Below, in pieces: positions 50,809 through 53,063 of a stretch of 64,000 nucleotides of DNA (position 1 is the first letter of the stretch; each line of letters opens with the position of its first letter). This DNA comes from an uncultured Thermoproteales archaeon. GTDB lineage: Archaea; Thermoproteota; Thermoprotei; Thermofilales; B20-G17. The position numbers were made by a program, and so were the translations under genes. The notes beneath the pieces are model-generated. The model saw only the letters and a program-made list of their open reading frames with translations. It did no database searches and was not told the origin of the DNA. The stretch is taken from NCBI GenBank assembly GCA_965368245.1, contig CBDUMD010000003.1, forward strand, positions 16,735 to 80,734, written 5' to 3'.

Positions 50809-51606
50809 ATAAAAAGAAAACTTGTCGCGATAAAACTTGGGGGATCAGCTATAACTATTAAAGATAAGCCTTGTACACCAAATGAGAAAGTACTATCTAG
50901 TGTGGCTGAACAGTTGGTGGAGTTATGGGAGGAGGGTTGGAAATTCATTCTCGTACATGGAGGAGGATCGTATGGTCATTGGACGGCAACAAGATATTCC
51001 GTCAACGAAGGCTATAAAGGGTTGCAGAGTATTAAAGGATACTTAGCTACAAGAAAAGCTATGTTGCTCCTAGATGAGGTTGTTTCAAAAATACTGGTAG
51101 AAACAGGTTTACCTGTAACACCTTTACACCCCTCCTGTCTAATAATAGCACGTAATGGTGTGATAGAGAAATTTTTCCTTGAACCCGTGAAAACGGCCTT
51201 AGTGAAGGGTTTCGTTCCCCTTCTACAGGGAGATGTAGTATTAGATCTAGATAAAGGCTTTTCCATAGTATCAGGTGACCAGATAATTTATTTCCTCGCG
51301 GAAAAATTCAAGCCGAGCAAAGTTGTATTTGGAACAGATGTAAAAGGAATATATGATAAAAATCCAAAACTCTACCCTGACGCAAAGCTATTTAGAAAAA
51401 TACCACTTAAACTCCTTAAAGCACTTGATACAAGTAAAATTATGGTGCCTGATGTTACAGGGGGACTTAAGGAAAAAATTAACTATGTTTCTAAAATAGT
51501 ATGTAAGGGGATACCGGTCTGCGTGGGGAGTTTAATTGAACCGAGAAATTTAATTAGAATGGTTAAAGGCGAGGAAGGGGACTATACGTTGATTCTAGGG
51601 TGGTGA
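50809..51606 (+). CDS. ipk: isopentenyl phosphate kinase (amino-acid-kinase fold); start codon unresolved
   Basis: ILVHGGGSYGH, VSGDQI, TDVKGIYDKNP and DVTGGLKEKI. The conserved N-terminal KLVAIKLGGSAIT lies in frame upstream of the first canonical start (GTG 50902), so I extend the call to ATA 50809 provisionally. Confidence 0.8.
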   Translation: MKRKLVAIKLGGSAITIKDKPCTPNEKVLSSVAEQLVELWEEGWKFILVHGGGSYGHWTATRYSVNEGYKGLQSIKGYLATRKAMLLLDEVVSKILVETGLPVTPLHPSCLIIARNGVIEKFFLEPVKTALVKGFVPLLQGDVVLDLDKGFSIVSGDQIIYFLAEKFKPSKVVFGTDVKGIYDKNPKLYPDAKLFRKIPLKLLKALDTSKIMVPDVTGGLKEKINYVSKIVCKGIPVCVGSLIEPRNLIRMVKGEEGDYTLILGW

Positions 51607-51685
51607 ATCAATATACTTTAACTGCTTTTTAGTTAAATTTATAAGTTTTAAGAAATAGTTTTCCTGCGACCGGAGGTTAGGGTCT

Positions 51686-51787
51686 ATGAGATCACGTATT
51701 TTTGACGAAGAAGAAGAGTGGTGGGAGGAGGAAGAGGAAGAAGAAGAGTGGGAAGAACTAGAGGAGGTCTGGGAGGAGGAATTTTAG
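51686..51787 (+). CDS. 33-aa hyper-acidic Trp-containing micro-ORF (MRSRIFDEEEEWWEEEEEEEEWEELEEVWEEEF)
   Basis: Too short for the ORF track. ATG 51686 is preceded by GGAGGT (51673-51678, 7-nt spacer) and a TATA-like AAATTTATAAG about 45 nt upstream. Stop TAG 51785-51787. Confidence 0.4.
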   Translation: MRSRIFDEEEEWWEEEEEEEEWEELEEVWEEEF

Positions 51788-51845
51788 TTTGGCAGTAAAA
51801 TAATTTGTTAATTTATTAGAAGCTTGAAAAGGAACTGATTTTCAA

Positions 51846-53063
51846 GTGTTTAGATGGATATCACCTGTAGATAGTTGGTGTTCATGTAAGTGGAGGTTAA
51901 TTAAATTACTTTCATGCTCCTTTTATCGATTCGTTATTTTAAGAGCTTTACTTAATAAAATTATAATAGATAAGAATGTTGGGGATGTGGAATTGATTCC
52001 AGAACTCATTGAGTATGCTCTACAGCATAGAGAAGAGATACTCGAGAATGCACAAAGCCTAAGAGTTAATAAAAAAGATGCTATAGAACGGTGGATTAAA
52101 TATAACCCTTCTTCTTTTGAAAGGGAGTTTAGGGTTTCAGCCACAGACGGTAGCCTCAATTTCATGGAGTTTAGAGGATTTATGTTGTATGCTATAAACG
52201 CGGTTTCTATTCTTTATTCGAGAAATGGTTTTGAAAAAGAGGTGAAAACCGGGAAAGTCGGTCTTCTACCTCCATCAGAGAACGTGCTAGAGAGGGTTAG
52301 AGCCCAAATGGGTATTTTGGAGGCTAAAACTACTTTGAATCTCATAGAGGAGGGCGAACTGGATCTTTCTTTAATAGATGGATCTTTTATAAGTTTTCTT
52401 GTTAAGCTTAGGGGTATTGAAAATGATATAAAAATGTTTATTAATCTGGATCCTGATTTCATGGAAAAATACATTAACGCTATTAATGAGCCTAAGCTTG
52501 ACATCCTCGCGGAGGAAAAGGCAACGGATATTATCGGCAGGGATCTTGATACAGATGTTCTTCTAAACTCGATGCTTACCCTCGAGAAGGTGGAGTTGCT
52601 GAATGTCTTAATTAAACTTTTTAGACGATATGGTGGAAAACTTGTGGCGATCTCCAAAACATCCACAAGTAGACGGTACTTCAGGTATAGCTTAAAGCCC
52701 GACCTAGTTATTTTCGATAAGCTTACTCAGAATACAGGTTTCTCCAAGCCTAATGTGGTTAAGTTATCTTTACCGAAAGCATTAAAAAATTATTTGGATT
52801 TTAGTGAGGATCTTATGTTCACGGTGTTTTATGCTCGGCTTGAACCGAGAGAACAGGTTTTTAGGATAGAGGTTTTTGGGGAAAGGAGTATGGAGGATAT
52901 TAAAAAATTACTTGATGACCTTTCAGTTTTCACGGTAAGGGGATACCCATATCCCCTTCGAAGAGCCCATCAGGAGGTTGAAATCCGTGGGGAAGATATG
53001 TTAAGAATCTACCGTATTTTAAGTCTCTATCATGAAGAGAGAGGGAGGGAGGTGTTGCTATGA
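51846..53063 (+). CDS. nurA: NurA 5'-3' nuclease
   Basis: FRVSATDGS and LSLIDGSF catalytic-Asp motifs. C-terminal VRGYPYPLRRAHQEV. The likely real start is in-frame GTG 51987 (TATA-like AAAATTATAATA about 25 nt upstream), because the Cys/Trp-rich first 47 codons look non-coding. Confidence 0.85.
   Translation: MFRWISPVDSWCSCKWRLIKLLSCSFYRFVILRALLNKIIIDKNVGDVELIPELIEYALQHREEILENAQSLRVNKKDAIERWIKYNPSSFEREFRVSATDGSLNFMEFRGFMLYAINAVSILYSRNGFEKEVKTGKVGLLPPSENVLERVRAQMGILEAKTTLNLIEEGELDLSLIDGSFISFLVKLRGIENDIKMFINLDPDFMEKYINAINEPKLDILAEEKATDIIGRDLDTDVLLNSMLTLEKVELLNVLIKLFRRYGGKLVAISKTSTSRRYFRYSLKPDLVIFDKLTQNTGFSKPNVVKLSLPKALKNYLDFSEDLMFTVFYARLEPREQVFRIEVFGERSMEDIKKLLDDLSVFTVRGYPYPLRRAHQEVEIRGEDMLRIYRILSLYHEERGREVLL

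Follow-up and report, generated by a model that had tools for sequence, protein, structure and literature searches.

The analysis concerns a micro-open reading frame (micro-ORF) of 33 codons located at positions 51686–51787 of the forward strand in a 64,000-nucleotide (nt) stretch of DNA from an uncultured Thermoproteales archaeon (assembly GCA_965368245.1, contig CBDUMD010000003.1, positions 16,735 to 80,734), the whole of which is referred to here as the window. The micro-ORF runs from an ATG start to a TAG stop and is translated into MRSRIFDEEEEWWEEEEEEEEWEELEEVWEEEF. A Shine–Dalgarno-like GGAGGT is found on the same strand at 51672–51677, 8 nt ahead of the ATG, and the TATA-like box of the micro-ORF promoter (TTTATAAG, read from the sequence) lies at 51638–51645, around 45 nt on the 5' side of the start. 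Upstream there is an AA_kinase-family gene, called IPK here (50902–51606, + strand; Pfam AA_kinase, 4e-33). Downstream, Pfam identifies NurA, HerA, Mre11 and Rad50. The nurA gene (51987–53063, + strand; Pfam NurA, 1e-33) is separated from the micro-ORF by a non-coding spacer of 199 nt (51788–51986, + strand), which has a T-rich start (TTTGGCAGTAAAATAATTTGTTAATTTATT) without a T5 run and carries a nurA promoter-like TATAAT ending at 51967.

In the encoded peptide, 20 of the 33 residues are acidic, four are Trp (positions 12, 13, 22 and 29) and the only basic ones are R2 and R4, with a net charge of roughly -19. The N-terminal stub, MRSRIF, is followed by Asp/Glu, and the C-terminus is EEEF, ending in F33; Pro is absent. 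The single-sequence AlphaFold2 (AF2) model consists of one helix over residues 4–32 with a predicted local distance difference test (pLDDT) score of 84, which is weak evidence for a poly-Glu peptide. In the predicted helix, W22, L25, W29 and F33 would share one face, and an L25-x-x-V28-W29 motif is present. Two metagenome contigs of the same species carry a gene call for the identical peptide.

The stretch 51704–51784 is 85% purine and contains GGAGG five times (at 51724, 51727, 51763, 51772 and 51775), copies that arise because GAG-GAG and TGG-GAG codons follow one another there. The Glu codons of the micro-ORF (10 GAA, 9 GAG) show the same usage as those of the neighbouring genes (157 and 126), and the purine tract is the coding body of the micro-ORF, nothing more. 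No Rfam family was matched over 51400–52200, and no ORF of at least 25 amino acids (aa) was found on the reverse strand over the tract; that strand is open because a pyrimidine strand cannot encode stops. An alternative-frame Arg/Gly ORF at 51718–51798 was considered and rejected, the other forward frames being closed in most homologs.

A preliminary description of this DNA, made from the sequence alone, had pointed out the ATG at 51686 with its GGAGGT and TATA-like element, the acidic run followed by Phe and the purine-rich tract with several GGAGG copies, all of which are borne out. It had counted 22 acidic residues and evenly spaced Trp, figures that the translation corrects to 20 and to the positions listed above. 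Moreover, it had placed the micro-ORF immediately upstream of nurA-herA-mre11-rad50; the gene order stands, but the 199-nt spacer and the box ending at 51967 do not agree with "immediately".

A Family of Glu/Trp Micro-Proteins

The micro-ORF is not confined to the window. The best distant NurA homologs are 47% and 36% identical, and both of their lineages hold an in-frame ortholog of the micro-ORF, with the peptide MRIFVFEEEEEWWEEEEEEEWEELEEVWEEEEF (in loci that we number L040, L128 and L129) or MIYEEEEEFWEEEEWEEEEWEELEEIWEEEEF (L005, L006, L126 and L130). One genome per prokaryotic species was scanned with a degenerate codon pattern encoding W-E-E-x-E-E-x-W-E-E, which yielded at least 119 loci. 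Since this pattern presupposes W-EE-x-EE-x-W-EE, the sample is biased, and all of the family counts given below hold among the matches listed. Around 70 of these loci are stand-alone micro-ORFs in metagenome-assembled genomes (MAGs) and isolates of Thermoproteota, the carriers being Desulfurococcales, Sulfolobales, Pyrodictium, Ignisphaera, Thermoproteus, Pyrobaculum, Vulcanisaeta, Bathyarchaeia, Brockarchaeota and Nitrososphaerota; a few Asgard archaea and Methanobacteriota are also among the matches. Examples of the peptides are MFEEEWWEEEEEEEWWEEEEEEWEEEEW, MPREEEWEEEEELWEEFEEEWEEEEEW, MSEDFDEEEEEEEEWEEEEEDWEEDWEEEELEEEW, MVFEEDWEEEEDWEEEEEDWEEEEW and MNNLVMEEEEWEGEEEEEWEEFEEEWEEEL. The recurrence of the micro-ORF beyond chance is thus confirmed, both by the same in-frame ORF in distant relatives and by similar ORFs in dozens of archaeal genomes.

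The distinct archaeal family peptides number at least 63, with a median length of 30 aa (range 24–52), a median acidic fraction of 68% and a median of five Trp. Summed over the 63 listed peptides, Glu accounts for 1303 and Trp for 300 of about 1980 residues, and past position 8 there is no basic residue. A short hydrophobic N-terminal stub, usually ending in F, Y or L, stands ahead of Glu runs that are broken by Trp. The last residue is hydrophobic or aromatic in 51 of the 63 peptides (W in 40, F in 6, L in 4 and V in 1) and Glu in the other 12. The family was delimited as stand-alone ORFs of 24–52 codons with at least 60% Asp/Glu, at least two Trp and no basic residue beyond the N-terminal eight. 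The window peptide shares this length, acidity, Trp content and distribution of basic residues, as well as the hydrophobic/aromatic stub and the aromatic or hydrophobic last residue (MRSRIF; F33). Furthermore, the segment I[FL]DEEEEWWEEEEEEEEW is common to the window peptide and to Pyrodictium peptides encoded next to the ABCE1 gene discussed below.

Similarity searches recovered next to nothing of this family. A phmmer search with the window peptide against 1.84 billion representative proteins gave no matches, and a profile led by a 45-aa member gave a single marginal one (P0027), itself an unnamed family member. An exact look-up of nine peptides (eight family members and that of the window) found none of them in the protein collection, and neither Pfam nor NCBIfam holds a family for six representative peptides. 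Literature searches with motif fragments and with keywords on small acidic archaeal proteins and ABCE1 yielded no description of the family, which is apparently undescribed in Pfam, NCBIfam and the open-access literature searched. Domain fusions were sought in longer open frames (L042, L059, L096 and others), and none is supported by a start codon; the upstream extensions in these loci appear to be just open frame. Several bacterial matches to the codon pattern (L045, L051, L072, L083 and L122, from Bacteroidota and Anaerolineae) have 68–87 codons, a Cys-containing N-terminal region and a C-terminal tail rich in Trp, Glu and Asp, and look like a different family.

Evidence for Translation of the Micro-ORF

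The pattern of substitution argues for selection on the peptide. In the three-way DNA alignment of the window and its two relatives, most changes are exchanges of GAA and GAG, and the indels comprise 3 or 6 nt. Across the wider family, 41 pairs of equal length with a peptide identity of at least 80%, which are phylogenetically non-independent, differ at 277 synonymous third positions versus 159 non-synonymous ones. Start and stop codons are conserved, with ATG as the start in 61 of 71 distinct listed ORFs, whereas the other forward frames hold stops in most homologs.

The micro-ORFs also have signals of their own. Over 62 family loci, a Shine–Dalgarno-like 4-mer is present at -15 to -4 in 56% (background, 16%), an A/T run of at least 8 at -65 to -26 in 58% (background, 12%) and a run of T5 or longer within 45 nt past the stop in 68% (background, 5%). 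In the window lineage, the TATA region lies in a block, TAGTTAA(A/G)TTTATAA, common to the window and to relative L040, and GGTGA occupies in the relatives the position of the GGAGGT of the window, so that one or the other precedes the ATG in all three.

On this evidence, the micro-ORF is judged to be a real small gene, independently transcribed and translated, in which selection acts on the peptide and not on the DNA tract. The preliminary description had also considered a non-coding purine tract that acts through anti-Shine–Dalgarno sequestration or through triplex or R-loop formation, a view to which the 85% purine content and the five GGAGG copies lend themselves. It is rejected on account of the third-position bias, the indels in multiples of three and the separate expression signals; moreover, the TGG codons are conserved although they break the GAR tract, and codon usage, the closed alternative frames and the Rfam result point the same way. 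Such a tract is now scarcely credible as an explanation. Loss of conservation or frame-breaking indels, which the same description had named as arguments against a micro-protein, were not what the alignments revealed.

ABCE1/RLI as the Recurrent Neighbour

The flanking ORFs of 81 pattern-selected loci were clustered. By far the commonest neighbour is a protein of around 600 aa with an N-terminal double 4Fe-4S region and two ABC domains, named RLI/ABCE1 by NCBIfam NF009945 (760 bits, cut-off 469), the ATPase of ribosome recycling. By tblastn, ABCE1 stands beside the micro-ORF in 39 of the 81 loci: in 34 it is co-directional, 57–455 nt downstream, and in five it is divergent, around 700 nt upstream. 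The association spans Thermoprotei, Bathyarchaeia, Nitrososphaerota and Brockarchaeota, and ABCE1/RLI is the predominant and phylogenetically broad genomic partner of the listed family. Adjacency to ABCE1 is typical but not universal, and the window locus does not have it.

A check independent of the codon pattern was made by inspecting the loci of seven ABCE1 proteins obtained by homology search, and a Glu/Trp micro-ORF was present just upstream, on the same strand, in five of them. Two belong to cultured species and have micro-ORFs of 36–37 codons for which no gene has been called. The complete Hyperthermus butylicus genome (CP000493.1; L131:2742-2852) has a micro-ORF that encodes MKWILLEEEEEWWEEEEEEEWWEEEEEEEEWEEEEW and ends 148 nt before RLI; in Pyrodictium occultum (LNTB01000001.1; L132:2646-2759), it lies about 175 nt or more before ABCE1, depending on the start. 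Two Sulfolobales MAG loci in the same set (L134 and L136) have ABCE1 flanked by eS26, and L136 is also near Cren7.

Other genes recur around the micro-ORFs as well. Those for translation or tRNA modification encode eS17, Cgi121-like, Urm1-like and THUMP proteins, and an RPB9-like Zn-ribbon protein is also found; the housekeeping ones encode the thermosome, FBP aldolase/phosphatase, TIM and PRTase. Genes for Urm1-like proteins and for PP-loop proteins with an SGGKDS motif are found repeatedly in the block formed by eS17, Cgi121, the micro-ORF and ABCE1 (L133:1014-1769, L137:990-1274 and the +3 gene of L021), which is therefore enriched in genes for translation and tRNA modification. A protein of around 95–100 aa, which has a Zn ribbon of the RPB9/TFS type at its N-terminus (PF02150, 1e-13) and whose tail is acidic and rich in Ser and Glu, is encoded between the micro-ORF and ABCE1 in L012, L054, L055 and L080, and beside the micro-ORF in L041. 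In Nitrososphaerota, an upstream ABC ATPase was considered as a candidate SufC and rejected, as it is of the transporter type by eye, so that no link with Fe-S assembly follows from it.

A Putative Ligand of ABCE1 Acting in Trans

The orientation of the downstream gene is informative as to whether the peptide acts in cis or in trans. Among distinct listed peptides with a downstream ORF, the next gene is co-directional in 39 of 58 cases and convergent in 19. Where the micro-ORF precedes ABCE1, the spacer contains a T-run and, beyond it, a second TATA-like box. The peptide features stay conserved where ABCE1 is not adjacent, whatever gene lies downstream. A common function is therefore assigned to the peptide in trans, which, judged from the sequences, is where its action is best placed.

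The role of the micro-protein is most likely related to translation and ABCE1, as its genomic partners suggest. In archaea, the 18 C-terminal residues of the ribosomal stalk protein aP1 (EEEVSEEEALAGLSALFG) bind ABCE1's nucleotide-binding domain 1 (NBD1) as a helix through L103, L106 and F107, and ATPase activity is thereby activated (PMC6125642). The aP1 tail binds translational GTPases in addition to NBD1 (PMC6125642), and the N-terminus of eIF3j binds the same NBD1 patch on small-subunit complexes (PMC7780240). By analogy with these two, the micro-protein would be a trans-acting ligand, acidic and prone to form a helix, whose aromatic residues would dock into a hydrophobic or basic surface of ABCE1 or of an ABCE1–ribosome complex, and it would tune the recruitment, the ATPase activity or the release of ABCE1. 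The whole reading, namely that the micro-ORF stands alone as a gene and is expressed, that its 33-aa polyanionic Glu/Trp product belongs to a Thermoproteota-wide family and that this micro-protein acts as such a ligand, is given about an even chance of being right. A more specific version, in which the free peptide sits on the NBD1 patch as a trans-acting cofactor controlling ABCE1 loading, ATPase activity or small-subunit release, and is thus an archaeal counterpart, conceivably a forerunner, of eIF3j/Hcr1, is offered tentatively and is more doubtful.

Several points weigh against this reading. The functional case for ABCE1 is drawn from genomic context, and the likeness to aP1 in the L-x-x-hydrophobic-aromatic motif is limited to the window lineage, while the predicted helix counts for little in a poly-Glu peptide. 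The counts come from the pattern-biased sample described above. In addition, the peptides are of low complexity, and homology across classes is not statistically demonstrable (phmmer no match, profile one); it is argued from architecture and synteny, and convergent composition instead of homology is conceivable. Two of the seven ABCE1-centred loci, L134 and L136, have no micro-ORF within 2 kb. The micro-ORF does not lie beside ABCE1 in Thermoproteales, Vulcanisaeta or the window lineage, and tblastn with ABCE1 finds none in the 64-kb window.

Genomic Context in the Window Lineage

The neighbourhood of the micro-ORF in the window has to be read together with that of its relatives. The start of nurA at GTG 51987 is supported by N-terminal alignment with the homologs P0002, P0003, P0007 and P0010 (345–362 aa), which begins at this codon. 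The longest nurA ORF, used by gene callers (405 aa), starts from a GTG at 51846. Because the homologs align only from GTG 51987, the 47-codon N-terminal extension (51846–51986; VFRWISPVDSWCSCKWRL...) is probably not translated.

The micro-ORF of the window and those of both relatives lie within 0.2–1.5 kb upstream of nurA-herA-mre11-rad50, on the same strand. IPK is the conserved upstream neighbour in the lineage, the order IPK then micro-ORF being kept in L005, L040, L126, L128, L129 and L130. Both relatives have IPK, the micro-ORF, a PP-loop gene for a PAPS-reductase-like protein of 434–445 aa, and then nurA-herA-mre11-rad50. This protein is matched by NCBIfam PRK08576 ("hypothetical protein", 416 bits), and its gene (L005:1351-2655, L129:1009-2346 and L126:858-2162) lies directly upstream of nurA. 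It is absent from 51788–51986 of the window, and tblastn of the window with the relatives' protein gave no match; the micro-ORF adjoins nurA in the window because this gene is missing there. In L005, 14 nt separate the stop of the micro-ORF from the PAPS-reductase-like start, with GGAGGAG between them. The synteny extends further upstream, through a block of helicase, SFM1-like, Ham1, GTPase, polyprenyl synthase and IPK genes, and thus runs from the helicase to rad50. As the whole of this block is syntenic, the proximity of the micro-ORF to nurA is not specific. Its position beside a DNA-repair operon looks secondary, ABCE1 being the usual neighbour in other lineages. The conservation upstream of nurA that the preliminary description had asked about is found in part: the ORF is in frame and its aromatic end is kept in the relatives, but the PAPS-reductase-like gene intervenes.

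Alternative Functions

The preliminary description had proposed that the peptide mimics DNA, single-stranded DNA or the tail of the bacterial single-stranded DNA-binding protein (SSB), and modulates the adjacent end-resection machinery of NurA, HerA, Mre11 and Rad50. A position on the same strand upstream of these genes in the window and its two relatives speaks for this proposal, and a charge of about -19 combined with stacking aromatics could in principle imitate nucleic acid, a binding mode that is physically plausible; DSS1, an acidic, Trp-containing eukaryotic micro-protein, mimics DNA in the repair hand-off between BRCA2 and RPA. However, the intervening PAPS-reductase-like gene, the block-wide synteny and the separate promoter-like boxes of the micro-ORF and nurA speak against a tie of the peptide to the operon, and outside this lineage no micro-ORF locus adjoins NurA, ABCE1 being the recurrent partner (four other loci have a HerA-like ORF at a distance of two or three genes). 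The peptide has no OB fold, no Pro-Phe tip of the SSB kind and no Pfam match. There is no evidence in this analysis pointing to NurA, HerA, Mre11, Rad50 or SSB as a target, and a modulator of these proteins, unlikely from the sequences, has very little probability left. A role as a general polyanionic chaperone or "glue" of basic proteins (such as ribosomal or chromatin proteins), comparable with that of DSS1/Sem1, would imply no specific tie with ABCE1, the genomic position being a matter of inherited synteny. Low-information composition of an extreme degree, variable length, contexts that differ between clades, and neighbours such as eS17, eS26, Cren7 and the thermosome are all compatible with it. 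On the other hand, one gene pair has been kept from Nitrososphaerota to Thermoprotei, which would be unusual without a functional link, and Pfam has no match for the peptide, hence no DSS1/SEM1; this explanation is regarded as unlikely. A third possibility accepts the link with ABCE1 and takes the peptide as an adaptor or tag for Fe-S delivery, in which a C-terminal acidic residue plus W/F would guide cluster insertion into the twin 4Fe-4S region of ABCE1, in the manner of the tripeptide by which the eukaryotic cytosolic iron–sulfur assembly (CIA) targeting complex recognises Lto1, the adaptor for Rli1/ABCE1. The genomic partner is indeed an Fe-S protein, and 46 of the 63 listed peptides end in [E]-[W/F], which fits positions -2 and -1 of the signal [LIM]-[DES]-[WF]-COO- (PMC10245660); the C-terminal Trp of Lto1 is required for the maturation of Rli1 (PMC4523923). 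Position -3, however, is Glu instead of L, I or M (in the window peptide F at -1 and E at -2 fit, and E at -3 does not), 12 of the 63 peptides end in Glu, and there is no deca-GX3 or other client-binding module. In the cited study (PMC10245660), the signal is confined to eukaryotic CIA clients and is not found in archaeal homologs, and no genes of the CIA targeting complex turned up in the micro-ORF neighbourhoods. Such an adaptor is improbable.

Finally, the micro-ORF might act in cis as a leader or upstream ORF (uORF), translation of its acidic run reporting on ribosome stability or recycling and setting read-through of the T-run terminator into ABCE1, the AdoMet decarboxylase gene or the PAPS-reductase-like gene. 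Translation of long acidic runs destabilises ribosomes in bacteria and eukaryotes, the "intrinsic ribosome destabilisation" reportedly described by Chadani et al. in 2017. The close, co-directional position upstream of ABCE1 in the 34 listed loci, the T-runs past the stop in 68% of loci and the 14-nt gap with GGAGGAG in L005 would suit such a leader. In Thermoproteales, the co-directional downstream gene is that for AdoMet (S-adenosylmethionine) decarboxylase, an enzyme that in eukaryotes is controlled by a uORF peptide. This gene (PF02675) is found 100–200 nt downstream in L016, L023, L065 and L094 of Pyrobaculum/Thermoproteus, and the parallel with eukaryotic uORF control may be a coincidence. 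A leader should always be upstream of, co-directional with and on the same transcript as its target, but the convergent next gene in 19 of 58 cases leaves no cis target, ABCE1 is divergent in five loci, the second TATA-like box in the spacers would serve the downstream gene, and in the window the 199-nt spacer and a separate box precede nurA. Moreover, a destabilising run by itself would not need a conserved placement of Trp or a terminal aromatic residue, and we know of no archaeal case in which a leader peptide attenuates transcription. Action in cis is accordingly rated as unlikely as the generic polyanion, and the trans-acting ABCE1 ligand is retained as the preferred reading.

Significance of the Family

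Should the peptide be produced, it would rank with the smallest conserved proteins of archaea and with those most extreme in composition, being built almost entirely of two amino acids. It has been kept across several classes of Thermoproteota, yet it is unannotated in the complete genome of the cultured Hyperthermus butylicus. The pairing with ABCE1 offers a concrete starting point for studying how ribosome recycling, and the transition from it to initiation, may be regulated in archaeal relatives of eukaryotes, in which we know of no accessory factor equivalent to eIF3j. The work also exposes a blind spot of method, since similarity searches of billions of proteins come back nearly empty for low-complexity micro-proteins, whereas a codon-pattern scan combined with synteny succeeds. 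Lastly, a connection with DNA end resection that was tempting, yet lacks support, has been removed.

Comparison with Known Systems

In the tail of the aP1 stalk protein, as in the micro-protein, an acidic run leads up to hydrophobic or aromatic residues set at intervals close to the C-terminus, and both form helices (by AF2 prediction for the micro-protein). Where aP1 reads L-x-x-L-F, the window peptide reads L-x-x-V-W, and ABCE1 is both a target of aP1 and the main genomic partner of the micro-ORF. In contrast, the micro-protein would be a free peptide, whereas the aP1 tail belongs to a dimer anchored on the ribosome; the micro-protein uses Trp instead of Leu/Ala/Gly and is far more acidic, and there is no detectable homology. 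The aP1/P1/P2 proteins are defined by an N-terminal dimerisation domain, a hinge and an L-x-x-L-F-G tail; the micro-protein contains no such domain and matches nothing in Pfam or NCBIfam.

A second parallel is the N-terminus of eIF3j/Hcr1, eIF3j being an accessory factor in ABCE1 recycling. Both have acidic stretches punctuated by Trp, and on the small subunit the eIF3j N-terminus touches ABCE1 close to NBD1 (PMC7780240). However, eIF3j is a protein of around 260 aa that forms a helical-bundle dimer and has a C-terminal tail binding the 40S subunit. The micro-protein, with 33 aa and no Pfam match, shares with this family only the acidic, Trp-containing character of the eIF3j N-terminus. Archaea, to our knowledge, are without eIF3.

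The CIA targeting tripeptide and Lto1 share with the micro-protein a C-terminal acidic residue followed by W/F with a free carboxylate, together with a tie to ABCE1, which for the micro-protein is deduced from context. They differ in the residue at -3, in the reported restriction of the signal to eukaryotes and in the client-binding module that the micro-protein lacks. The tip of bacterial SSB (DDDIPF) is likewise an acidic run ending in Phe, which had led the preliminary description to call the peptide SSB-tail-like. The SSB tip, however, is carried by an OB-fold protein and has Pro-Phe, whereas most of the micro-proteins end in Trp, their hosts are archaea and their family-wide context is not DNA metabolism; the window peptide is a free-standing chain of 33 aa with no Pfam domain, an EEEF end and no Pro.

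Acidic leader peptides of the MgtL type are likewise encoded by short ORFs that lie ahead of a gene, with the acidic run close to the N-terminus and a terminator-like element after the ORF. The family departs from them in that one locus in three lacks a co-directional gene downstream, and destabilisation does not explain the aromatic pattern. We know of no MgtL-type destabilisation mechanism in archaea. Finally, DSS1/Sem1 is also very small and acidic with conserved Trp anchors, and both it and the micro-protein would bind basic or hydrophobic grooves on their partners. DSS1, with two acidic Trp sites, differs in its length of 70–90 aa, its non-acidic linkers and its C-terminal helix, and its partners (PCI proteins and BRCA2) are not encoded in the micro-ORF neighbourhoods; at 33 aa and with no Pfam match, the micro-protein is similar in composition alone. 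As a kind, small acidic regulators anchored by Trp are already known, as DSS1, the stalk tails and the acidic motif of eIF3j illustrate.

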